A DNA stretch of 64,000 bases. Source: Escherichia phage AV101. The notes under the pieces are model-generated. The model saw only the letters and a list, made by a program, of their open reading frames with translations. It searched no databases and was not told where the DNA came from. The position numbers and the translations under genes are program-made. Positions within the stretch are counted from its first letter, which is position 1, and each line of letters begins with the position of its first letter. The stretch lies in the sequence record OQ973471.1; one strand, written 5' to 3'. Positions 6,463 through 48,639 of the stretch are shown here, in pieces.

Positions 6463-7017
6463 ATGAAATATTTTGAGAAGTTTCCACTTGTTTGGCATCA
6501 ATTGCAAGATGTCCAAGAGAATGATCAGGTGCTGTTACAGAACTTAACGCGCCGGGTGATGATCTTACAGAAAATTAAGGACATCGAAGGGCTTCTCCTG
6601 CCGTATACGATCCAAGAGGGGGAAACCCCAAGGTCTTTTGCAGAACGCGTTTACGGATCCTTCGAGTTGTTTTGGATACCTTGTCTGATAAATGGCATCA
6701 TGGACATCAATAAGGACTGGCCGAAACCGGAACGCCGTATTATTGAAGAACTGACTGCAGATTATGGCATCGATGGTATGTGGGATACAGCCTATTATGT
6801 CGACCAGTTCAACAATGTGACCGACGCCCGTGCTATCAAATTTGCATATAACCTAGACCTGGATGAGCCGTCCATAATTGCTAACTATGGTCTGACGGCA
6901 GTTTCATACCATGATGATGCAATCAGTAAGAATGAAGCCAAACGGAACATCCAAGTACTCGACCCAGATTATGTGTCTTCGTTTGTCAATCAGCTGGAGC
7001 AGGAGTTGGCGAAATGA
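6463..7017 (+). CDS. structural-module protein, function unknown
   Basis: RBS GAGAGGA upstream; coupled to the following gene (ATGA overlap). Confidence 0.35.
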   Translation: MKYFEKFPLVWHQLQDVQENDQVLLQNLTRRVMILQKIKDIEGLLLPYTIQEGETPRSFAERVYGSFELFWIPCLINGIMDINKDWPKPERRIIEELTADYGIDGMWDTAYYVDQFNNVTDARAIKFAYNLDLDEPSIIANYGLTAVSYHDDAISKNEAKRNIQVLDPDYVSSFVNQLEQELAK

Positions 7018-8402
7018 TCGAAAACAGAGAGACCCAAGACGGTATTGTAACACCGTCAACAACATTTGACCTGAAGTATATGGCGATCCTCCCTCATACG
7101 CCCCAGGGTGGATCACCAACGCCATATGACCTGACGGCGTTGTTTGAGGAGTTCAACGTCTTCCAGGATCTGGGTCTTGAAGGGAAGTCATCTCCATCAC
7201 TTACAGCCAATGTCTTGATAAAAGAGGGGTGGGACATTCTTGACACAATGCCTATCTTGGGTGGTGAAGAAGTTGTGGTGTCATTCAAGAGTCCGGCAGC
7301 CTCGGAATACACCACTCTCTCCCTGCGCGTAGCGCGTGTTGGGCGCGTAGCTGATGAGTCCAACAGCTCGTCCAAGAAAGCATTCTGGTTGCACATGGTG
7401 ACCACCGATGCCTATAAGGACAGCATGATCCGATGCTCCCTCGGTCTTGACGGTTCGTATTCTGACATGGCGAAGACAATCTTCAATCAGCTGGAGTCGC
7501 GCACCAAGTTCGAAGACATCGACCCGTCGTATGGAATTCAAGAGCGGTTCGCCACCCCGCTCTGGCCTGTGCTGCGATCTATTGATTATATGGCGAGCCG
7601 TTCTTATGACGAATTGTTCATGCCATTCGTGTTCTATGAAGACTTCAATGGCTATCACTTCAAGAGCCTGACGACGTTGTTCAACCAGGGCAGCCAGTCA
7701 TTGACAGCAGAAGAGAAGCAGGAACTAGCTCAGCAGAACAAGTTGTTCCGTGATCCTCAGGACGCGCCGCTCATGCAGGATAACAACTTCAACTCTGAGC
7801 GCTTTATGCGCACGATCATCAAGGCAGAGAAGAAGCTGGCGCGTGACCAGTTCATGGCAAACTACCGCGATGTCCTGGCGGTGAACGAGCGCGTCTACGA
7901 CTTTGAGACCAAGACAGTCACCCCAACACAGCGCGTCTACACTGAGTGGTTTGCAGAGACGGCTCACCTTGATCCGTTCCCGATGTTCTCAGATGAATTC
8001 AATCGTCAGAACGTCCGTTACATTGAAGCCCAGCCGGATGGAGCGGAGCAGATTGATTATGCTCGTCGTGTTATCAACTTCAGTCTTGCCAGCACTGTGA
8101 TGCGCGTGTTGCTCGTTGGTGATAACCGCCTGAACGTCGGTCAGGTGTTCTACGTTGAAGACCAGTCCAACCGTCCTAAGAAGAACGAAAACCTGGCAGA
8201 GTTAAGTAAGCTATCGACAGGCCACTATATCGTGACCAAAGTGCGTCACAAGATTTCCCGCCTGACCAAAGATTATCAGTGCATCGCTGAGATTGCCAAG
8301 GACAGTTTGCTGGAGCAGGTGCTTCCACCTCAGACCAATCAGACAACTGCTTCCACCACTACTCCTCAGGCGATTGAGAAAGGCCAAGCACAGAAGGTTT
8401 AA
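7014..8402 (+). CDS. putative baseplate hub protein (gp27-like, tentative)
   Basis: 462 aa; position between structural genes and upstream of tape-measure-like gene. Confidence 0.3.
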   Translation: MIENRETQDGIVTPSTTFDLKYMAILPHTPQGGSPTPYDLTALFEEFNVFQDLGLEGKSSPSLTANVLIKEGWDILDTMPILGGEEVVVSFKSPAASEYTTLSLRVARVGRVADESNSSSKKAFWLHMVTTDAYKDSMIRCSLGLDGSYSDMAKTIFNQLESRTKFEDIDPSYGIQERFATPLWPVLRSIDYMASRSYDELFMPFVFYEDFNGYHFKSLTTLFNQGSQSLTAEEKQELAQQNKLFRDPQDAPLMQDNNFNSERFMRTIIKAEKKLARDQFMANYRDVLAVNERVYDFETKTVTPTQRVYTEWFAETAHLDPFPMFSDEFNRQNVRYIEAQPDGAEQIDYARRVINFSLASTVMRVLLVGDNRLNVGQVFYVEDQSNRPKKNENLAELSKLSTGHYIVTKVRHKISRLTKDYQCIAEIAKDSLLEQVLPPQTNQTTASTTTPQAIEKGQAQKV

Positions 8403-21749: not shown

Positions 21750-22408
21750 CAGATACTCCCAAAATCACGACAGAGGAATGCCATCACAGCCTGGTCTACT
21801 GTTAGGCCGTGAGACTTCATCATACCCGCAGCCACCGTAGGGAACAAGTCTTTATGTCGTTGACGATGGTCATGAACTCTCTCCCACTTCTCGACCACCA
21901 GACTTTCATTGAAATCCACACCGCCGTTGCGTGATTTAACGCGGGTGATACACGTTTCAAGAGGAGTGTCCATAAAGAGCACAACCAATTCACGTGGTGG
22001 GCGTGTCAGGCGGGGGATCCAAGAACTCAATAATGTGGATGGAATGATACCTTCGAAAATCACATCATATTTCAAGTATTCTGGTTGGTCAGCAATAGAC
22101 AACGCGAACAACATCTGCTCAGTGTCCTTCAGGGAATCAACCCCCTTGGACTTCGACTTGTCATATTTACCGATACAGACCACGTTGAACGAAGGACAGA
22201 CAGTCAGCATGACCTTGCCGTTATGGGTCACGACATACGCCTGAGGATCCCTCTCCGCCAGCTGAGACGGCACAGTGGATTTACCGCTACCATTGGAGCC
22301 TTTGACGTAGTAGATTTGCCCTCGTGCTGGGTAGATCCCCTTTACGACGGGTGGTTTAAAGAATGTGTGGACGGGGCGCTTCATCAGCCCCTTCAGGGAG
22401 TAGGACAT
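21749..22408 (-). CDS. P-loop kinase, polynucleotide-kinase-like
   Basis: Walker A GSNGSGKST and downstream LFMDTPLETCITRVKSRNGG resembling T4 Pnk kinase domain FDVPWTELVKRNSKRG; no phosphatase domain. Confidence 0.5.
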   Translation of the reverse strand: MSYSLKGLMKRPVHTFFKPPVVKGIYPARGQIYYVKGSNGSGKSTVPSQLAERDPQAYVVTHNGKVMLTVCPSFNVVCIGKYDKSKSKGVDSLKDTEQMLFALSIADQPEYLKYDVIFEGIIPSTLLSSWIPRLTRPPRELVVLFMDTPLETCITRVKSRNGGVDFNESLVVEKWERVHDHRQRHKDLFPTVAAGMMKSHGLTVDQAVMAFLCRDFGSI

Positions 22409-30172: not shown

Positions 30173-30979
30173 ATGAATTTACCATCATTGCCCAGAACAG
30201 AAAAGACATATAAAAGCGACTTTTGGCCTACTGTGATCAAATATCGCGCCTTTACTGCGGGGCAACAAACTTTATTACTTCAGGTGTCAGATCCGCAAAC
30301 GCCGATTGAAGAACGCGCAGCCATGATGGAGAGTCTCTTTAGCGAATGTGTAAATGCAGGCGCACCTTTCAGCAAACTGCCAATCGGCGTTGTTGAAGAA
30401 GTGTTCATCCGCATGCGCATGATATCCATCGGTGAATTGATGAAGATTCGTTATAAGTGCAATAATCAGATTGAAGAAACGATCGATCTGGGAGATGGTC
30501 AAGAAAAGCGTCAGATGGTTCCCTGTGAGCAGGAACTGACTCTACCTATCCCGTTGAACAATGTCAAATGCATTGCTCAGGACGGCTTCCGGGAAACGTT
30601 TGACCTGCCAGGTGGATATCACCTCAAGATGCGCCAACCTTCCTTCTCGGACGCTACGGCACTGTCTGATGCTGCAAGCGTTGAGATGATGCTGGCCACC
30701 TTTATCGACTGTCTGTACGATGATGACGGTCAGGTGTGGAAGGTTGAGAATCCTGAAGAAATCGGAATCACTCCGGAAGAGGCTACTGAGCGCCGCCGTG
30801 TGAAAGAAGCGTTTGGTGGGTGGGTGAAGGATAACATCGAATCAGATGTTATTGACAGCATTACGAAGAACTTCTTCCACAAAATACCGCGCATCCACTA
30901 CAAGAGTTCGATCAAGTGTCCGAAATGTGGTAAGGAGCACAAAATCGAATTCAATAGTATTAATGAAATTTTCATTTAA
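30173..30979 (+). CDS. hypothetical protein with C-terminal CxxC zinc ribbon, upstream of gp5
   Basis: ATG 30173 after GTGGAG RBS; C-terminal CPKCGKEH; followed by intrinsic terminator. Confidence 0.45.
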   Translation: MNLPSLPRTEKTYKSDFWPTVIKYRAFTAGQQTLLLQVSDPQTPIEERAAMMESLFSECVNAGAPFSKLPIGVVEEVFIRMRMISIGELMKIRYKCNNQIEETIDLGDGQEKRQMVPCEQELTLPIPLNNVKCIAQDGFRETFDLPGGYHLKMRQPSFSDATALSDAASVEMMLATFIDCLYDDDGQVWKVENPEEIGITPEEATERRRVKEAFGGWVKDNIESDVIDSITKNFFHKIPRIHYKSSIKCPKCGKEHKIEFNSINEIFI

Positions 30980-31127
30980 TGTTTGAAACTGATTTATTAT
31001 CCTACTTCGTGATGTGTGATGAATTGAAGTTACACGGCTATAGCATATTTGAAATCAACGAGTCGATGCCATGGCATCTTGACTTGTTAACCGAAGCCCT
31101 CAAGGTCAGGTTGTCTAAGAAACAGTA

Positions 31128-31149
31128 ATCCCGCTTCGGCGGGATTTTT
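31128..31149 (+). terminator. intrinsic terminator
   Basis: ATCCCGC-TTCG-GCGGGAT followed by TTTTTA. Confidence 0.65.
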
Positions 31150-31169
31150 ATTGGCTTAACTGTAAAATC

Positions 31170-31207
31170 GGTTAACACGTACTCTCTTTACCTGAAATTG
31201 CTATAAT
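31170..31207 (+). promoter_or_regulatory. putative sigma70-type early promoter with extended -10 (TGcTATAAT)
   Basis: TTGCTATAAT at 31198-31207 in the long intergenic region. Confidence 0.4.
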
Positions 31208-31449
31208 GGGCTTGTTCCCGAGTCATTTGTTGGTGTTTGTCTGTTTTGAATCAGATTGCCAGTAAAATACCATTTTTCAAGGAGTGTTCTGGGGTGTACA
31301 GTTATTGCCTCGCCCTTATGCCTCCATGGCATTGGAATGGTGCTGCCCGCATAGGGCGGTTTGATGAGCGAAGCGAATAGGATCGAATAAAACAAATAAA
31401 ATGAACGGAAGCAGAGCTTCCTATAGTATATAAGGCAAAATCAGCTGCG

Positions 31450-31457
31450 CATAAATA
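31450..31457 (+). promoter_or_regulatory. putative late promoter (CATAAATA) upstream of gp5
   Basis: Near-consensus late motif about 35 nt before ATG 31492. Confidence 0.35.
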
Positions 31458-31491
31458 CCTTCAAATCCTTGTTTGACAACCGGAACTCAAT

Positions 31492-33102
31492 ATGTTAGAC
31501 AATATGAGATGGTTTTACGGCACCGTTGAAGATGTCAACGATCCAGACCAAAACGGGCGCGTCGCCGTCCGCATCTATGGCGTACACACCGACGATCCCG
31601 TCCTCCTGCCTACGGACAAACTCCCATGGGCGAAGGTACTGATGCCTGCTTCAAACGCCTCCTCTGCTGGTTTAGGTTGGTCTCCAACGGGTATCATTCC
31701 TGGCACTGAGGTTATGGGGTTCGCCCTTGACGAAGCATACCAGAATTTACGCATCACCTGGACTTGGACTGGTTCAAGTCCTACTGATGGTGCCGACACA
31801 AACCCACTGGCCCTCGGGCAGGTCGTTCAATCTGTGGAACGTCAGGCGTACAACGCCGTCACTGACGTTCCTGTGAAACAAGAAGACGAACCACAACCAG
31901 ATCCACAACCACCTGTTGGCGGGTATGATCCAGAGAAGTGGATGACAATCGCTCGTGGTGAATTGGGTATCAAGGAGTACGCCGGAAAGTTCAACAACAA
32001 CCCGCGCATTATAGAATATCACAAGACAACCTCCCTTGGTGCTTCTGAAGATGAAGTGTCGTGGTGTGCGGCGTTCGTGGGTTGGGTTATGATACAGGCT
32101 GGATACACGTCTACACGCTCCGCTCTTGCCCGATCTTACCTTACATGGGGCACTCCACTGTCAGCACCACAATATGGCGCTATCGTAGTCTTCCGGCGTG
32201 GTAACAACCCCACATTTGGACACGTAGCGTTTGTGCAGAAGTTCGATGCAAACTATGTCTGGTGTATTGGTGGCAACCAATCCGATTCAGTGAAGGTTAG
32301 TCGTTTCAGACGTTCTTCGGTCTTGGGATATCGTTGGCCTGGTCCTGCTAACACAGCCACAGCCGCGCCTGCGCAGCAGAATGGTAAATGGTCAGAACCT
32401 ATCCCAGATCGTACTCCAAAGGAACAACCGACTCCGGCTCCTACTGGGCGAGTACAGGATATTGACAACACTGGAGAAACCATGGTTCCGGCTGCGGGTG
32501 GATCTAAATACCCGTACAATAACGTCATGGTGTCCCGAGCTGGGCATATTATGGAAGTGGATGACACCCCTGGCGGTGAACGTCTTCACTGGATGCATAA
32601 GTCTGGGTCTTACAAGCAAATGTTGCCGGATGGTGATGTGGTCAACAAGTCCGTCAAAGACCACTATGACCTGACGATGTTCAACAAGCGTTATTATGTC
32701 GGCGGGGACCACAACCTGACGGTCAAAGGAACTGAAGTTCAGCGCAAGACAGGTGAGGTCTATCATTTGCATTCCAACAATTACTCCAACGTGGTTGCGG
32801 GCACAGCGCTGATGAAATTCAGTGACCTAGCGGAAATGCAAGCGCAGAATATTCTGCGCATTATCTGCGAGACTCTGGAGGTCGGTGGGACATTGAAGGT
32901 TCCTAAGATTCTAACGACTGAGATCATCGCTGACAAACTGACGGTTGCTCAGACGATCAATGGTAACATTATATATGCCGAAGGTGCTGGTCGTGCTTCT
33001 TCTCTGTCAGGTGCAACCCCTGCATCCCCTACGGGTCCGGGTGAGATTGACATCAAGGCAGAATTAAAAGACAATGGTGGTAATTTCGGCACCAAAGAGT
33101 AA
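31492..33102 (+). CDS. baseplate hub / tail-spike protein gp5 with NlpC/P60-type peptidase domain
   Basis: N-terminal OB-fold RWFYGTVEDVNDPDQNGRVAVRIYGVH as in T4 gp5; central Cys/His domain (WCAAFVGW...GHVAFV); C-terminal beta-helix-like region. Confidence 0.75.
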   Translation: MLDNMRWFYGTVEDVNDPDQNGRVAVRIYGVHTDDPVLLPTDKLPWAKVLMPASNASSAGLGWSPTGIIPGTEVMGFALDEAYQNLRITWTWTGSSPTDGADTNPLALGQVVQSVERQAYNAVTDVPVKQEDEPQPDPQPPVGGYDPEKWMTIARGELGIKEYAGKFNNNPRIIEYHKTTSLGASEDEVSWCAAFVGWVMIQAGYTSTRSALARSYLTWGTPLSAPQYGAIVVFRRGNNPTFGHVAFVQKFDANYVWCIGGNQSDSVKVSRFRRSSVLGYRWPGPANTATAAPAQQNGKWSEPIPDRTPKEQPTPAPTGRVQDIDNTGETMVPAAGGSKYPYNNVMVSRAGHIMEVDDTPGGERLHWMHKSGSYKQMLPDGDVVNKSVKDHYDLTMFNKRYYVGGDHNLTVKGTEVQRKTGEVYHLHSNNYSNVVAGTALMKFSDLAEMQAQNILRIICETLEVGGTLKVPKILTTEIIADKLTVAQTINGNIIYAEGAGRASSLSGATPASPTGPGEIDIKAELKDNGGNFGTKE

Positions 33103-33174: not shown

Positions 33175-33555
33175 ATGAAAGAGTACAAAGATGTCGATCT
33201 GAAGTTCGGCATGCATCCGGTGACCAAAGATGTCACCATGAAATCAGGTGTATATGCTGTCTTACAATCCGTGCGGAATATCGTCATGTCTTCAGTCGGG
33301 GACTGGCCCACTTATCCTGGGATCGGCGCAGGGTTGTATAATCTCCTCGGAGAGAACACCACCCCAACGATTCAGGTAGATGTGAAGAACAAAGTAGAGG
33401 ACGCTATCGCCCTGTATGAACCCAGAGCAGAGGTAGAAGAAGTCACGGTGAGTCTGTCAGAGGATTACCATTCTCTGGGTGTGACCATCACATTCTATGT
33501 GGTCAACAATCCAGATCCAATAACAGACACCGTGTGGTTGAAAAGGACGAATTAG
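33175..33555 (+). CDS. baseplate wedge protein gp25-like
   Basis: YEPR motif and overall match to the T4 gp25 pattern as recalled; 126 aa. Confidence 0.65.
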   Translation: MKEYKDVDLKFGMHPVTKDVTMKSGVYAVLQSVRNIVMSSVGDWPTYPGIGAGLYNLLGENTTPTIQVDVKNKVEDAIALYEPRAEVEEVTVSLSEDYHSLGVTITFYVVNNPDPITDTVWLKRTN

Positions 33556-34708: not shown

Positions 34709-35812
34709 TTAAGCGAATTTGAGGCCATCGGATACCGAACCAGTCAGTACACCCATTAGATAATCAGGAGCTTCCGCTTCCTGCAACGCGTACTGCATTG
34801 CCTTATTATCTAGCCAGTCATTAATCCATGGGACTGGGTTCTCCTTGCGAGGTTCACCGGGATATGGGTGCCCGATAGCGCCCATCCGGTGGGTTGCCAG
34901 CCAGTCTACCATCTGATGAAGGATCTTGGCGTTCAGCCCCAGGATGGAACCGTCTTTGAATAGGTAGTTCGCCCACTCCTTCTCTTGATGAACCACGTCC
35001 AGGAACATCTGGGTCATCTCACCACGCAGTTCCTCACGGATGATTGCAAAGTCGGGGTCCATACCAGGCAGGCGGTTTAGCAGCGTCTGGGTCAGGATCA
35101 GGTGATCCTGCTCATCACGGGCGATCTGTCGAATGATTTTGGCATTGCCTTCCATTTTCTTCTGGAACTGTGTGAATGCCCAAGAGCATGCAAAGGACAC
35201 GTAGAAGCGGATGCCTTCCAGTGTGTTGGCAGCAAACAGAGCACGCCAGAATGCGCGTTTGGCATTCATCAGATCTTCTCGGGTGAAGATGCGTCCGGCC
35301 ATACGCATGCCACTGTACTGTACCATGTCATCGTAGTACACACTGATCTGGTGAGCGCAGTCCACGATCTCTGCAACATCCAGTACGTGGTCAAACACGA
35401 TACCTGGATCGTTCACAGTGTTGCGCAAAATGTGGGTGTACGATAAAGAGTGAATGGCTTCTTGGCGCGTCCATTCAAGGACAGCAAACTGCATTTCAGG
35501 GGTAGACGCCCATGGACCAAACGCCTCGAACGGAGCCGCACCCTGGATAGAGTCCAGCATGGTCTGGCGCTTCAGGTTGCTGAAGTAGACATGTTTCTCT
35601 GCTTCGTTCAGAGTAGCGAAGTCTGCCTTGTCCTTGGTGATGTCCACCTCTTCAGGACGCCAGAACTGGCTGAGACCTTTCTCATACCACTTCTGTACGA
35701 ATGGCCAGGCCACGACATCGTAACGCTGGATGCTCACTGGGTCACCGAAGAACGGTAGACCAGTGTTGTCCGAGCTTGGGTCGAATACGGAGAATTGTTT
35801 CTGTTCGCTCAT
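34709..35812 (-). CDS. nrdB: ribonucleotide reductase class Ia beta subunit
   Basis: Ferritin-like di-iron fold pattern, 367 aa, adjacent to nrdA. Confidence 0.85.
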   Translation of the reverse strand: MSEQKQFSVFDPSSDNTGLPFFGDPVSIQRYDVVAWPFVQKWYEKGLSQFWRPEEVDITKDKADFATLNEAEKHVYFSNLKRQTMLDSIQGAAPFEAFGPWASTPEMQFAVLEWTRQEAIHSLSYTHILRNTVNDPGIVFDHVLDVAEIVDCAHQISVYYDDMVQYSGMRMAGRIFTREDLMNAKRAFWRALFAANTLEGIRFYVSFACSWAFTQFQKKMEGNAKIIRQIARDEQDHLILTQTLLNRLPGMDPDFAIIREELRGEMTQMFLDVVHQEKEWANYLFKDGSILGLNAKILHQMVDWLATHRMGAIGHPYPGEPRKENPVPWINDWLDNKAMQYALQEAEAPDYLMGVLTGSVSDGLKFA

Positions 35813-35882
35813 GTTTCTTTCCTGATTAATAAGGGGTGATCTCTCACCCCTGATGATATAACGGTAGTAGGTTTAGACCAAT

Positions 35883-38165
35883 TTATACAACACAGCTGTC
35901 GCACTGAGTTTCCTCAGCCTGCTTCAGCTCTTCGTCTTCCTTGGCGTCCTTGTTTGTGTTGTAATATAGAGTCTTGCCACCCCACATATAGAACGACAGG
36001 ATATCCTGCATCATCTTGGCGCGAGGGATCTTGCTGTCAGGGTACTTCTCTGGGTCATACCACGTGTTGGTACTAATGGACTGGTCAACCCAGCGCTGGA
36101 TGACAGCAGCGGTCTTCAGGTACTCAATACAGTCCAGATCCCACTTGAGGTCATACATCGGTCCAAGGGTCTCAACGTCCGGGACGACCTGCTTATAAGT
36201 GCCGTCCTTGCTACCCTTGATGCTCACCAAGCCCTTCGGTGGCTCAATGCCGTTCGTTGCGTTGAGGACCTGTGAGGAGCTTTCGGTAGGGGCTACTGCC
36301 AGCAGGGTGGCGTTGCGGATACCATAGGTCTTCAGATTATCCTTCAACTCATCCCAATCCAGCCCATATGCCATCCCTTCCGGCTTCTTGCCATTTGGTA
36401 GGATATCAAGTGGAAGCGGCTGAAGGTCGGCGGTGACCTGCCCATTATTGTGGATGGTTCCGCGTTTACACGCCCCGAACTTCATAGCCAGACGGTTGGA
36501 TGCCTTGACCAGATAGAAGTGCAGGTGTGCCATCCACGCATCCAACATTTCAAGACCAGCTGGTGAGCCATAGCCCGTGAAGTTCTTGGCCAAGAAGTGA
36601 GCCACGTTCACGATACCAACACCCAGAGGACGATAGTCTTCAACAGCTTTACGAGCCTGAATCGCTGGATAGTCCTGATATTCCAACAGCATGTCCAGCG
36701 CAGACACCAACACGAACGCCACGTCTTCCATTTCGGTCGGGTCTTCGAATGCTGTCAGGTTGAAGGAAGCCAGGGTGCACAGAGCCACGCGCCCGTTTTC
36801 ATCGTTGTACTGCTCAAACTCACGGGTCGGCAGGGCGATTTCTAAACAAAGATTTGAAGAATAAATCGTGTCTAGGTTGAACGGGCTGTATTCATTCATG
36901 TGATCGACAAATGCGATGTAGATGCGGCCTGTGTCTGAACGCTGGTCTAACAGCATCTGGAACACCTCTTCTGCCTGCAACTTTTTAGCACGAACCAAAC
37001 CAGCATCAGCGGCCTTGATCATGTTCTCATACAGAGTACGGAACTTGTCAACGTCAGCGAAGTATGCTTCATACATTTCGCGGTTGTCTTTCGGGTCGAA
37101 CAGATACAGAGGCTGCTTGGCAACAAGGCGCTCAAACATCACGCGGTTGATCTGAATGCCATAGTCGATACGGCGTTCGCGGTTTTCTTCAGTACCACGG
37201 TTGTTCTTCAGAACAACGACGTCATCGAACTGGTAATGCCACAGAGGGATGTACGCTGTTGCTGCACCACCACGAATGCCGCCCTGAGAGCACGATTTGA
37301 GTGCCCCAGTGAGATACTTGATGAACGGGATCAGGCCTGTGTGAACCATCTCTCCGCCGCGAATAGGACTACCAATCCCACGGATTGCCCCGACGTCGAA
37401 GCCGATACCCGCACGTTTGGACACATAGTCAACGATGGTCTTGGCTGTTGCGTTGATAGAGTTCAGGGTGTCACCAGTTTTGATCAGAACACAAGAGCTG
37501 AACTGGCGGGTTGGTGTACGAACACCAGCCATGATAGGCGTTGGAAGACTGAACTTGCCTGTGCTGGCGTATTCATAGAACTTCTTGACCATATCCAGGC
37601 GGCTTTCTTTGTCCCAGTTGGAGAACAACGCCATGGCGATTGCCATGTACATGACCTGAGGAGTTTCGTAGAAGATCTTGCTATCCTTCTTGGAACGGTC
37701 ACGCAGCAGATACTTCTCTGTCAACTGGCCCATGGCCGCCCAGGTGAAGTTCTTGTCACGTTTGTGGTTGATGACATCGTTCAGCTCGTTGAACTCTTCA
37801 GTCGTGTAAAGGTCGAGGAACTCACGATCATACACGCGTTGCTTGATGTTCTTGACGAAGATATCCAGCAGGTGAGGTGGCTTGTACTGGCCATAGACAG
37901 CCTTGCGCAGATCATATGACTTCAGGCGAGCAGCCACATACTGGTAATTGGGTTTCTCTACGGAGATCAGTGAAGCCGCAGCCTGGATGAGGATATCCTG
38001 AATGCGATCTGTTCTCATGTTGTCGGTGAACTGAATCTTCGATGCAGCGATCACCTCTGACATTGATACGCCAACCAGTCCGTCACATGCGCGGTCTACG
38101 ACTTCGTGTGGTTTCTCAATATCAAAGGGGACAGAAGATCCGTCCCGCTTAATGACGTTAATCAT
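35883..38165 (-). CDS. nrdA: ribonucleotide reductase class Ia alpha subunit
   Basis: N-terminal ATP-cone (VIKRDGSSVPFD), 760 aa, C-terminal CxxC tail. Confidence 0.9.
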   Translation of the reverse strand: MINVIKRDGSSVPFDIEKPHEVVDRACDGLVGVSMSEVIAASKIQFTDNMRTDRIQDILIQAAASLISVEKPNYQYVAARLKSYDLRKAVYGQYKPPHLLDIFVKNIKQRVYDREFLDLYTTEEFNELNDVINHKRDKNFTWAAMGQLTEKYLLRDRSKKDSKIFYETPQVMYMAIAMALFSNWDKESRLDMVKKFYEYASTGKFSLPTPIMAGVRTPTRQFSSCVLIKTGDTLNSINATAKTIVDYVSKRAGIGFDVGAIRGIGSPIRGGEMVHTGLIPFIKYLTGALKSCSQGGIRGGAATAYIPLWHYQFDDVVVLKNNRGTEENRERRIDYGIQINRVMFERLVAKQPLYLFDPKDNREMYEAYFADVDKFRTLYENMIKAADAGLVRAKKLQAEEVFQMLLDQRSDTGRIYIAFVDHMNEYSPFNLDTIYSSNLCLEIALPTREFEQYNDENGRVALCTLASFNLTAFEDPTEMEDVAFVLVSALDMLLEYQDYPAIQARKAVEDYRPLGVGIVNVAHFLAKNFTGYGSPAGLEMLDAWMAHLHFYLVKASNRLAMKFGACKRGTIHNNGQVTADLQPLPLDILPNGKKPEGMAYGLDWDELKDNLKTYGIRNATLLAVAPTESSSQVLNATNGIEPPKGLVSIKGSKDGTYKQVVPDVETLGPMYDLKWDLDCIEYLKTAAVIQRWVDQSISTNTWYDPEKYPDSKIPRAKMMQDILSFYMWGGKTLYYNTNKDAKEDEELKQAEETQCDSCVV

Positions 38166-39195: not shown

Positions 39196-39990
39196 TTAAC
39201 TGAAACTCTTGTATGCTGCTGCGAGCTTCGCGTCGTACTGGTTCTTGGCATACGCCGGACCATTATAGCGCCGTGCAAACTCAGCCCAGTTCTTGTCCTT
39301 CAGAGCCTGCCAGAGCTTGGCGTCAGCCTTGATGAACTTCACGAATGCCATCAAATGAGCACGTTCTCCTGTCAGGAAGTCGTTGAACATCTCCTTGGCG
39401 TTGGCATATCCACAGACCTGGCAGTTGAATCCCATGATCTGGAAGAGACCGTAAGAGGCGCTCTCGTACGCACAATCCTCATCGATGTTGATCGCTGCAT
39501 GAAGTCGATCCAACTCCGCGTCGCCTCCCGTGTACCCGCCTGCGGAAGGACTGACCAACGTCGGGTACATATGTCCCATGGCATTCGCCCGAGCCTGTCC
39601 GAACTTCGCCATCAGCTTCTTATACATGATGTGGCGCTCAAACAATGTCTTGATCTTACCTGACTTGGTGAAGCCCGTGCCGCGCGACTCAACCTGATTC
39701 ACCGCCTTGACAGAGGCAAGGTCAACACCCAGATCATTAGCAGCATCAATCAGGTCTGACTCAGTTAGATGATCCTGATGGGCGTCTCCGGCGTTGCGAA
39801 TAGCATAGGAGGTCTTTGGACCCACGATACCATCAATGACAAGTCCCGCACCCGCCTGAACCGTCTTGACGGCGTTCTCTGTTGCCTTACCAAAGATACC
39901 ATCAGCGACGAGGGTGAAGCCGATTTTGTTGAGGCTATTCTGAAGTGCCTTCACTTCAGTGCCACGGTTGCCAAGTTTTAGAATGGCCAT
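39196..39990 (-). CDS. endolysin: peptidoglycan-binding domain plus muramidase-like catalytic domain
   Basis: N-terminal PG-binding repeat (LQNSLNKIGF...DGIFGKATENAV...DGIVGPKTSYAI), C-terminal YGLFQIMGFN motif; GGAGG RBS. Confidence 0.65.
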   Translation of the reverse strand: MAILKLGNRGTEVKALQNSLNKIGFTLVADGIFGKATENAVKTVQAGAGLVIDGIVGPKTSYAIRNAGDAHQDHLTESDLIDAANDLGVDLASVKAVNQVESRGTGFTKSGKIKTLFERHIMYKKLMAKFGQARANAMGHMYPTLVSPSAGGYTGGDAELDRLHAAINIDEDCAYESASYGLFQIMGFNCQVCGYANAKEMFNDFLTGERAHLMAFVKFIKADAKLWQALKDKNWAEFARRYNGPAYAKNQYDAKLAAAYKSFS

Positions 39991-39993
39991 AAG

Positions 39994-40024
39994 AAATACC
40001 TCCACAATGAATGCAGAGGTATTT
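39994..40024 (-). promoter_or_regulatory. stem-loop sequestering endolysin RBS
   Basis: 9-bp stem AAATACCTC/GAGGTATTT; the 3' arm on the mRNA contains GGAGG RBS, ATG 4 nt downstream. Confidence 0.4.
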
Positions 40025-47389: not shown

Positions 47390-48025
47390 TTACGGCGTTG
47401 TAACCACCGGGATATGAGACCGAATTCCAGCGATGATGTCCTTCAGCTGAGGCTTCCATCCATCCACCAAACGGGGTAGAGCGATAGCACCAGGCTGGAC
47501 CAAAATGATGTCGCTGCCTGTGATATTGTGCTGAGGGAACTGGGCAAGGTACTGCTCCATGGTGACACCCTCATCAATCAGAACCGCACCGACGTCAGAC
47601 GATGCGTAGGTCGCACCCAGACCGTCAACGCCCCATGCCAAGATACCCCAGTCAGGGATGTTGGCTTCAGATGTGATGGTGAATCCAAACACAGTGTTCA
47701 GGGAGGTGAAGGAATAGACATCGTGAGTTATGTCATACACCAGATACCCCTTGGCCAGCATATCGGCAAATATCGCGTCCGTATCGCCAGCAGCCGGAGT
47801 CGGTACAGTAAACAACAGCTCACCCTCAGGAGGAGCAGGATACGTGCCGAGGGCATAGAGGCACCACGCATCGATGCACTTCTTGATAAATGCCTCCGGT
47901 GCGACATAATCAGCAAGGCGAACCGTACCTGAGTACTCTGATACGATAATGCCTTCCTTCGCACCCTGTAGAGCAATGAAGACCAAGATATGTTCATATC
48001 CGGCCTGAGATGGAGTGATGTTCAT
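47390..48025 (-). CDS. hypothetical protein
   Basis: Start ATG 48025 overlaps stop of upstream gene (TAATG). Confidence 0.4.
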   Translation of the reverse strand: MNITPSQAGYEHILVFIALQGAKEGIIVSEYSGTVRLADYVAPEAFIKKCIDAWCLYALGTYPAPPEGELLFTVPTPAAGDTDAIFADMLAKGYLVYDITHDVYSFTSLNTVFGFTITSEANIPDWGILAWGVDGLGATYASSDVGAVLIDEGVTMEQYLAQFPQHNITGSDIILVQPGAIALPRLVDGWKPQLKDIIAGIRSHIPVVTTP

Positions 48026-48639
48026 TATCTTGTCCTCTTCAGTTTCTCTATTGTGTGCCTGTTCATGGCGATCACCTGAGGATCTACCTCGGAGATGGTC
48101 CGGCCTTCGAAGGACACACATTTCTGAAGATATTTAGCTTTCTTCACGACGTCGGCAGCATAAGCGTTCGATGCAGGATTACGGGCGAAGCCAGCATTGT
48201 AAGAGGAGAGGGATTTGCGGATATTCTGATTGTGATAGGTCAGCCAGAACTGCATCTCATCGAGGGCGGCTTGCGCGGCATATTCTTGGTCGGTCAGCAA
48301 CTTTATGGCGACATTGGCATAGCACTTGCGATTCTTACAACCTTCGCGATCACCAACTGTCTTCACCTTGTTCTGAAAGGCTCCCATGTTGGCCGCCTTG
48401 AGGCCGTATCGCATTGACACTACATCTTCGCCAGCGCGGCTCTCACGCCAAGATATGGCGGCCAGAGTGTAGCCAAGATCTTGTGTCTTGCCCACGTGAT
48501 AGGCGGTTGCCATCGTATTAAGTTGTTGCTCAGAGAAATTATAAACACATTGACTTGTATTTTGGGAAGCGTGCACATTCCCGCTGGCAATGGTAAAGGT
48601 CACGGACAAGGCCATGGCCTTCAACGTTGTCATCGTCAT
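48025..48639 (-). CDS. secreted lytic-transglycosylase-like protein
   Basis: N-terminal signal peptide MTMTTLKAMALSVTFTIASGNVHA; SLT-like ISWRESR...GAFQ...YNAGF. Confidence 0.45.
   Translation of the reverse strand: MTMTTLKAMALSVTFTIASGNVHASQNTSQCVYNFSEQQLNTMATAYHVGKTQDLGYTLAAISWRESRAGEDVVSMRYGLKAANMGAFQNKVKTVGDREGCKNRKCYANVAIKLLTDQEYAAQAALDEMQFWLTYHNQNIRKSLSSYNAGFARNPASNAYAADVVKKAKYLQKCVSFEGRTISEVDPQVIAMNRHTIEKLKRTR

Follow-up and report, generated by a model that had tools for sequence, protein, structure and literature searches.

A predicted TIGR02594-family cysteine peptidase in the gp5-type central spike protein of Escherichia phage AV101

Structures of hub-borne papain-like peptidases have been solved for diffocin and for Staphylococcus phage phi812, both directed at Gram-positive targets. 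For the virions of phages of Gram-negative hosts, a 2017 review lists endopeptidase activity as demonstrated for phi6 P5 only (PMC5380687), and biochemistry of the peptidase domain described here would therefore fill a gap. The TIGR02594 family, to which we assign that domain, includes annotated phage endolysins and a type VI secretion (T6SS) effector of Stenotrophomonas. Deletion of this effector together with a second one strongly impaired the killing of E. coli, and complementation with the TIGR02594 effector restored it.

Within the Ackermannviridae, a gp5-borne peptidase is a family-wide trait that is already known as an annotation. The PhiSH19 genome paper (2011) lists the ortholog as 'Tail-associated lysozyme' with 'Gp5 OB family & CHAP domain'. 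Some GenBank records call the protein 'cell wall-associated hydrolase', and one relative (P0125, 84% identical) stands at NCBI as 'TIGR02594 family protein'. The family review of 2024 mentions neither gp5 nor lysozyme nor peptidoglycan. Our search of the open-access literature turned up no activity assay, no mutant and no structure for an Ackermannviridae gp5, no cryo-EM of an Ackermannviridae baseplate or spike, and no TIGR02594 biochemistry. Most of the approximately 280 deposited Ackermannviridae genomes name the protein 'tail lysozyme', a misleading label that has spread to unrelated proteins sharing the CHAP domain, such as ICP1 ORF207.

Here we analyse a window of 64,000 nucleotides from Escherichia phage AV101 (OQ973471.1). 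Its gp5 very probably corresponds to T4 gp5 but has a TIGR02594-family peptidase in the place of the GH24 lysozyme, and we extend the same confidence to the entry mechanism proposed below.

The gp5 gene and its surroundings

The features of the window outside the gp5 domains are the following.

7014..8402, + strand: candidate gp27-type hub protein, 462 aa, 52.7 kDa (phrog_350 'tail protein', 7.7e-99)
30173..30979, + strand: gp26-type baseplate hub subunit (Pfam T4_baseplate, 2.7e-45), equivalent to LIMEstone1 ORF059, a confirmed structural protein
31450..31457, + strand: CATAAATA, a box resembling a late promoter, 35 nt ahead of the gp5 start
31492..33102, + strand: gp5-type baseplate central spike/hub protein, an ATG-started open reading frame of 536 aa, 58.4 kDa
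33175..33555, + strand: gp25-type baseplate wedge subunit (Pfam GPW_gp25, 6.6e-09), equivalent to LIMEstone1 ORF062, a confirmed structural protein
39196..40005, - strand: endolysin, PG_binding_1 plus N-acetylmuramidase (DUF3380/PF11860) by Pfam
48025..48639, - strand: SLT-like protein of 204 aa, T4 vs.1 homolog (PF01464 sub-threshold, signal peptide)

AV101 is a ViI-like phage of the Ackermannviridae. Its gp5 protein shows 100% amino-acid identity to gp068 of Escherichia phage vB_EcoM-RPN242 (Ackermannviridae, Aglimvirinae), 93.5% to the ortholog ORF061 of Dickeya phage LIMEstone1 and approximately 84-85% to the proteins of Kuttervirus phages of Salmonella. At the DNA level several deposited Escherichia and Enterobacter phages match the gene at 98-99% identity, and a protein search of the phage collection retrieved 279 records at a coverage of at least 80%. 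Some of the Serratia and Erwinia members have an extra C-terminal extension of about 80 aa.

The genes run in the order gp26-type hub, a 49-aa open reading frame, a terminator, gp5, gp25, glutaredoxin, NrdB, NrdA, PhoH and endolysin, and this order matches the one published for the Ackermannviridae. The box upstream of gp5 agrees at seven of eight positions with TATAAATA, the T4 late consensus. LIMEstone1 has the same sequence throughout the stretch 31445-31494, which contains the box, and its record marks a 'putative late promoter' at this place. An Rfam search of the 340-nt gap upstream of gp5 for non-coding RNA gave only sub-threshold noise.

The likely partner of gp5 is encoded far upstream, at 7014-8402. 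A search for a gp27 homolog gave no match by Pfam or by PDB sequence, so this candidate is assigned from its PHROG, its size, its position and the published annotation: it fits LIMEstone1 ORF26, 'baseplate hub subunit (T4 gp27)', 52.61 kDa, in both size and position.

Mass spectrometry of LIMEstone1 virions recovered two unique peptides of ORF061 ('T4 gp5', 58.18 kDa), which the GenBank record of that phage flags as 'confirmed structural protein'; gp26, gp25 and the gp27-type hub were recovered as well. A 'tail associated lysozyme', matched here by name only, is also among the proteins detected by mass spectrometry in Vi01-like phages.

Domain organisation of gp5 and its predicted catalytic residues

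The protein divides into five segments, listed with the codons of the predicted catalytic residues.

31492..31776, + strand: OB-fold domain (aa 1-95), Pfam Gp5_OB
31777..31926, + strand: Pro/Gln-rich linker 1 (aa 96-145), from low pLDDT and composition
31927..32340, + strand: TIGR02594/CHAP (NlpC/P60 clan) cysteine peptidase domain (aa 146-283), pI 9.6, from Pfam and NCBIfam
32065..32067, + strand: codon of predicted catalytic Cys192
32221..32223, + strand: codon of predicted catalytic His244
32275..32280, + strand: codons of Asn262-Gln263, candidate third polar residue of the triad
32341..32496, + strand: Pro/Ala/Thr-rich linker 2 (aa 284-335), from low model confidence and composition
32497..32796, + strand: gp5C-like region (aa 336-435), predicted start of the spike beta-helix, from homology to T4-type gp5
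32797..33099, + strand: C-terminal region (aa 436-536), unlike T4 gp5, without Gp5_C or Gp5_trimer_C

Comparison by phmmer aligns the T4 gp5 structures 1k28 and 1pdl to residues 3-93 and 338-432 only and leaves the middle of the AV101 protein unmatched. An OB fold like that of T4 gp5 had been claimed from the letters alone, and it is borne out: Gp5_OB is found by Pfam at 1.9e-12 (48.1 bits against a cut-off of 25), covering profile positions 15-72 of 144, and BLASTP gives 41% identity over 97 aa to residues 6-102 of T4-type gp5 (E=3e-18). An AlphaFold model of the full-length monomer, built from a 23-sequence ortholog alignment, has a mean pLDDT of 49 and recovers only the OB and CHAP units, so that it is uninformative for the C-terminal spike. 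The OB domain is modelled as beta-strands with block-mean pLDDT mostly of 76-82, its loop 52-66 being of low confidence.

In linker 1 the pLDDT is low across residues 94-142, and proline accounts for 8 of the 52 residues from 94 to 145. Linker 2 contains a conserved motif that runs from N297 to P309 (N297-GKWSEPIPDRTP-309), and lies at the same position as the T4 gp5 linker with the maturation cleavage site. Both linkers are less conserved than the CHAP domain in the 23 Ackermannviridae orthologs. Beyond them, residues 339-435 are 36% identical to T4-type gp5 386-480 (E=8e-17), with only two consecutive VxGxxxxx repeats (403-418) against about eleven in T4-type gp5. Neither Gp5_C nor Gp5_trimer_C was matched in the Pfam search of the protein. 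The region from residue 436 onward is its least conserved segment; in the monomer model, residues 451-465 form a helix and the rest of that region is of low confidence. As the C-terminal spike differs from that of T4, the mode of membrane penetration may differ too.

The middle domain had been read as an NlpC/P60-type or CHAP-like peptidase, and the domain search of gp5 confirms this identity with two families, both above their curated cut-offs. CHAP (PF05257, clan CL0125) scores 43.2 bits against 26 over residues 187-262 (profile 4-81 of 81), and TIGR02594 (NCBIfam) scores 129.6 bits against 70.55 over residues 150-282 (profile 2-132 of 132). Both scores lie far above anything expected by chance. 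No lysozyme family is found in AV101 gp5 by Pfam at E<=1, while the control T4-type protein does score Phage_lysozyme. The placement of the peptidase between the OB domain and the predicted beta-helix, the slot of the T4 lysozyme, supports the replacement reading.

The two motifs on which the sequence-only reading rested its Cys/His pair are both located, WCAAFVGW at residues 191-198 (nt 32062-32085) and GHVAFV at residues 243-248 (nt 32218-32235), and the pair itself holds. Residues 141-303, searched against 5.8 billion proteins, gave 188 significant relatives, most of them stand-alone proteins of about 140-260 aa that are frequently joined to peptidoglycan-binding domains. In an alignment of 119 of these, Cys192 is a cysteine in 118 and His244 a histidine in all 119; Asp187, Trp191, Asn262 and Gln263 are likewise kept in 119 of 119. 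Profile alignment to E. coli MepS places Cys192 on Cys94 and His244 on His145 (precursor numbering; hhalign probability 46%), the catalytic pair that is Cys68 and His119 in mature numbering. In the model, Cys192 sits at the N-terminus of a helix and His244 at the start of a beta-strand; such secondary-structure positions and the alignments would fit the geometry of a catalytic triad. Asn262-Gln263 follow His244 by 18-19 residues, in keeping with CHAP-type spacing, and one of them may supply the third residue.

The predicted fold of the domain is alpha+beta and papain-like. Its neighbours in the fold comparison are, with their scores, Acd24020 (13.4), LytE (12.9), CwlO (11.9), the diffocin Hub-Hydrolase (11.5), MepS (11.4), the CHAP domain of LysGH15 (10.4), Tae3 (9.0) and Tse1 (8.1). 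All neighbours are NlpC/P60 or CHAP proteins, a lysozyme fold is absent from among them, and comparison with a viral structure library agrees. The CHAP-domain profile gave only marginal matches to PDB sequences near the His motif (E 0.19-0.9); hence no close sequence relative has a solved structure.

Across the 23 orthologs (58-99% identity) the peptidase domain is better conserved than any other segment of the protein, with a mean identity of 84% and 63 invariant columns out of 138; the OB domain averages 71%, and the linkers and the C-terminus 64-68%. This conservation argues for a working enzyme. The comparison with related gp5 proteins that had been proposed as a check shows the peptidase domain to be kept throughout and the catalytic residues to vary little or not at all. 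We looked also for a lysozyme fold and for a dyad without conservation and found neither.

Proposed entry mechanism and alternative readings

The clan spans DL- and DD-endopeptidases, LD-carboxypeptidases and amidases, so sequence alone does not fix the bond that is cut. The scissile bond most likely lies within or between stem peptides, as for an endopeptidase. The proteins nearest to the domain in structure carry the description DL-endopeptidase or cell-wall endopeptidase; such enzymes cut inside the stem peptide. MepS is annotated as both endopeptidase and L,D-carboxypeptidase. That the tail cuts peptide cross-links, as had been suggested from the motifs, is upheld as regards a peptidase-type domain, while cleavage of the cross-links themselves is one of three possibilities.

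In the mechanism that we propose, gp5 would be transcribed late from its own promoter and then built into the baseplate, as the mass spectrometry of the 93.5%-identical LIMEstone1 ortholog indicates. By analogy with T4, the protein probably trimerises, its OB domains would dock on the gp27-type hub, and its C-terminal region would be the needle; the trimeric state, the docking and any proteolytic maturation are extrapolated from that phage, whose gp5 binds a gp27 trimer and cleaves itself into gp5* and gp5C. Contraction of the sheath would drive the needle through the outer membrane, and three basic peptidase domains on their Pro-rich linkers could then reach the peptidoglycan. There Cys192 and His244, with Asn262/Gln263, would cleave an amide bond in the stem peptide by hydrolysis, and the tail tube could pass through the local hole so formed.

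The same delivery is compatible with another bond. CHAP domains can also be MurNAc-L-Ala amidases, and the AV101 domain as an N-acetylmuramoyl-L-alanine amidase would strip whole stem peptides off the glycan. We regard this as unlikely.

An active enzyme might, alternatively, be dispensable for DNA entry and serve at another stage, in lysis from without at high multiplicity, as a help in lysis or only on certain states of the wall, for instance in stationary phase. The wall-degrading functions of the phage are redundant in this respect, since it also encodes a muramidase endolysin and a secreted SLT-like protein. Moreover, short Gp5_OB+CHAP proteins without a spike shaft occur in other myoviruses, so the module is not bound to a needle. 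But throughout the family the module keeps its place in the central spike and is strongly conserved, which fits a role in penetration, and the LIMEstone1 ortholog is physically in the virion; we consider a non-entry role improbable.

Of these two further enzymes, the separate muramidase endolysin foreseen from the sequence is indeed present, with PG_binding_1 and PF11860 at 39196-40005. The endolysin Gp110 of Salmonella phage 10, likewise with DUF3380, has lysozyme-type cleavage (PMC5674055). The accompanying idea that glycan cleavage is left to the endolysin does not stand as a true division of labour, as this enzyme is expected to act at lysis and not at entry. The proposed secreted SLT-like protein fares less clearly. 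It has a convincing signal peptide (MTMTTLKAMALSVTFTIASGNVHA, followed by S) together with WRES and YNAG motifs, while its match to PF01464 (E=4.4e-4, 20.2 bits) falls below the cut-off of 21.3. A regex scan detected no canonical SLT motif, and the gene surfaced only through Pfam, below threshold. Its homologs are annotated as vs.1 or 'transglycosylase SLT domain protein' and are often mis-named RegB.

The mass of the SLT-like protein (22.76 kDa) had suggested a virion component, LIMEstone1 structural ORF085 having 22.75 kDa. The protein corresponds, however, to ORF086, which is not flagged as structural, and ORF085 to the neighbouring DUF7270 gene; a virion role was thus rejected, and the SLT-like protein is absent among the proteins recovered from LIMEstone1 virions. 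Had the virion location held, the particle would have carried both glycan-cleaving and peptide-cleaving enzymes.

A more elaborate reading, which we hold to be distinctly improbable, has the peptidase latent in the virion and activated in the periplasm, where it would cut a bond that no tail enzyme of a phage with a Gram-negative host is known to cut, for example gamma-D-Glu-mDAP or a 3-3/4-3 cross-link. The latch could be the linker-2 motif or a disulfide between Cys258 and the catalytic Cys192. The disulfide idea derives only from Cys258 being lineage-specific: 90% or more of the 23 orthologs have it, and the consensus of the wider family has no cysteine there. If the latency reading were true, gp5 would be the first biochemically defined cysteine-peptidase entry enzyme of a myovirus with a Gram-negative host.

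That the spike keeps the domain as a module without catalysis, structural or for binding peptidoglycan, is barely credible. The activity of an AV101-type domain is predicted from sequence, and the 2017 review has phi6 P5 as the only demonstrated endopeptidase among the virion lysins of phages with Gram-negative hosts, but the four residues Cys, His, Asn and Gln show next to no variation in the 119 relatives and in all 23 orthologs, dead domains usually lose their catalytic residues, and this one is the most conserved part of the protein.

We therefore return to a working, spike-borne endopeptidase as the preferred reading. In practical terms, the domain might serve to engineer enzymes against Gram-negative bacteria, as a lytic module that is compact (about 140 aa) and basic.

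Comparison with known systems

The closest system is T4 gp5 (PDB 1K28, 1PDL, 5IV5), which shares with AV101 gp5 the OB domain (41%), a region homologous to the start of the beta-helix (36%), an enzymatic insert flanked by linkers, the baseplate gene neighbourhood and the location in the virion. The two differ in the enzyme, a GH24 lysozyme in T4 and a papain-like cysteine peptidase (TIGR02594/CHAP) in AV101. The AV101 protein has in addition a shorter OB domain, two VxGxxxxx repeats instead of about eleven, and an unrelated stretch of about 100 residues at its end. Nothing substantive separates it from the RPN242, LIMEstone1 and Kuttervirus orthologs.

Stand-alone TIGR02594 proteins (Pseudomonas phage ZC01 gp075, the phage 73/Kakheti25 type and ICP1 ORF207) have a domain 34-60% identical to that of AV101 and share with it the invariant D, W-C, H and G-N-Q residues. 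They are about 140-310 aa long, occur alone or fused to PG_binding_1 and lack both the OB fold and the spike; unlike gp5, they are presumably freed at lysis and not carried by the tail. The 'gp5' of ICP1 was considered as a separate case of a CHAP domain on a hub and was rejected, as it consists of PG_binding_1 and CHAP without an OB fold.

The T6SS effectors, which comprise the TIGR02594 protein of the Stenotrophomonas VgrG4/VgrG5 operon and the Tae families (Tse1, Tae2, Tae3, Tae4), are separate cargo with immunity proteins and serve to kill rivals, whereas the AV101 domain is joined covalently to the spike and would presumably breach the wall only locally. The diffocin Hub-Hydrolase CD1368 (8V3W), the lytic domain of the phi812 hub (9EUF/9EUM) and Andhra gp10 also attach an NlpC/P60 or CHAP domain to a hub, but these Gram-positive-targeting hubs use other scaffold proteins against thick-walled targets and have only 12-18% sequence identity to the AV101 domain.

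The combinations in which Gp5_OB is found are the following.

Gp5_OB with GH24 lysozyme: T4-type gp5
Gp5_OB with TIGR02594/CHAP and a spike shaft: Ackermannviridae
Gp5_OB with TIGR02594/CHAP and no spike shaft: Agrobacterium phage OLIVR6 (304 aa) and the metagenomic proteins P0144 and P0145
Gp5_OB with NlpC/P60 (PF00877): P0147
Gp5_OB with a VgrG3-like hydrolase: P0149

The Gp5_OB scaffold is thus a modular carrier of wall hydrolases. Conceptually this is nothing new, as gp5-type scaffolds were already known to carry different wall hydrolases in this manner, and a specialist would not be surprised to find a TIGR02594-family peptidase on that of AV101.

C-terminal region of gp5 and its orthologs

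The C-terminal third of the gp5 spike (aa 436-536; window 32797-33099) differs from T4 gp5. The spike contains two VxGxxxxx repeats only, a helix is predicted at aa 451-465, and a DNGGNF motif near the C-terminal end is invariant; the C-terminal region gave no Gp5_C match. Nine orthologs in the gp5 alignment A2 (P0134-P0140, P0142 and P0143) present an additional C-terminal extension of ~80 aa (columns ~545-629), in which a spacer rich in Ser, Thr and Ala is combined with a terminal block that is conserved (...G.KP....S.G..WE). Among the Ackermannviridae orthologs with the extension are the gp5 proteins from Serratia phage 3M and from Erwinia phage phiEa2809; the gp5 of the window lacks it.

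CHAP proteins of other phages

Three further CHAP proteins are considered:
L003 2752-3468 (MH310936 108875-109591): PG_binding_1 + CHAP protein of Vibrio phage ICP1_2012_A, 238 aa
L004 2572-3486: short Gp5_OB + CHAP protein, gp220 of Agrobacterium phage OLIVR6, 304 aa
L005 6001-6960: short Gp5_OB + CHAP protein of JGI contig Ga0495607_0000017, 319 aa

The Gp5 OB domain is absent from the 238-aa ICP1_2012_A protein, whose gene adjoins phoH. Its architecture is of the endolysin type, and so its "tail lysozyme" label was probably carried over from Ackermannviridae gp5, whose CHAP domain it resembles. OLIVR6 gp220 and the protein of the JGI contig both lack the C-terminal spike region, and on the contig a gp25 gene directly follows the Gp5_OB + CHAP gene. 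The needle in the phages with these short proteins must be made from another protein.

The SLT-like gene and its neighbor

48025-48639, minus strand: SLT-like secreted protein
47390-48025, minus strand: DUF7270 protein, ~211 aa and 22.65 kDa as counted from an internal ATG

The SLT-like protein has a signal peptide, WRES and YNAG motifs and a sub-threshold SLT match. T4 vs.1 is its homolog, and in many phage records its homologs are wrongly annotated as the RegB endoribonuclease. The LIMEstone1 record does not flag it as a "confirmed structural protein", while ORF085 of the same phage, the counterpart of the DUF7270 protein, is a virion protein confirmed by mass spectrometry.

Other features of the window

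31127-31491: non-coding gap of 340 nt upstream of gp5, from an intrinsic terminator (AATCCCGCTTCGGCGGGATTTTT) to the gp5 late promoter
21752-22408, minus strand: 5-hmdU DNA kinase (PF18748, E=1.6e-108)

The gap holds a TATAAT-like box at ~31203, and gave no Rfam match above threshold. The kinase implies a thymidine-hypermodification pathway in AV101. A related HMUDK_hel gene (L005 580-1647) lies near the Gp5_OB + CHAP gene of the metagenomic phage.

Between nrdB and nrdA, RPN242 (L001 24324-24617) and LIMEstone1 (L007 5754-6047) carry an ORF of 294 nt that is missing from the window (35812-35883). The nrdA gene itself is ~1 kb longer in LIMEstone1 (3303 nt vs 2283 nt in the window). This difference suggests that LIMEstone1 has an inserted element there, for example an intein or an intron.
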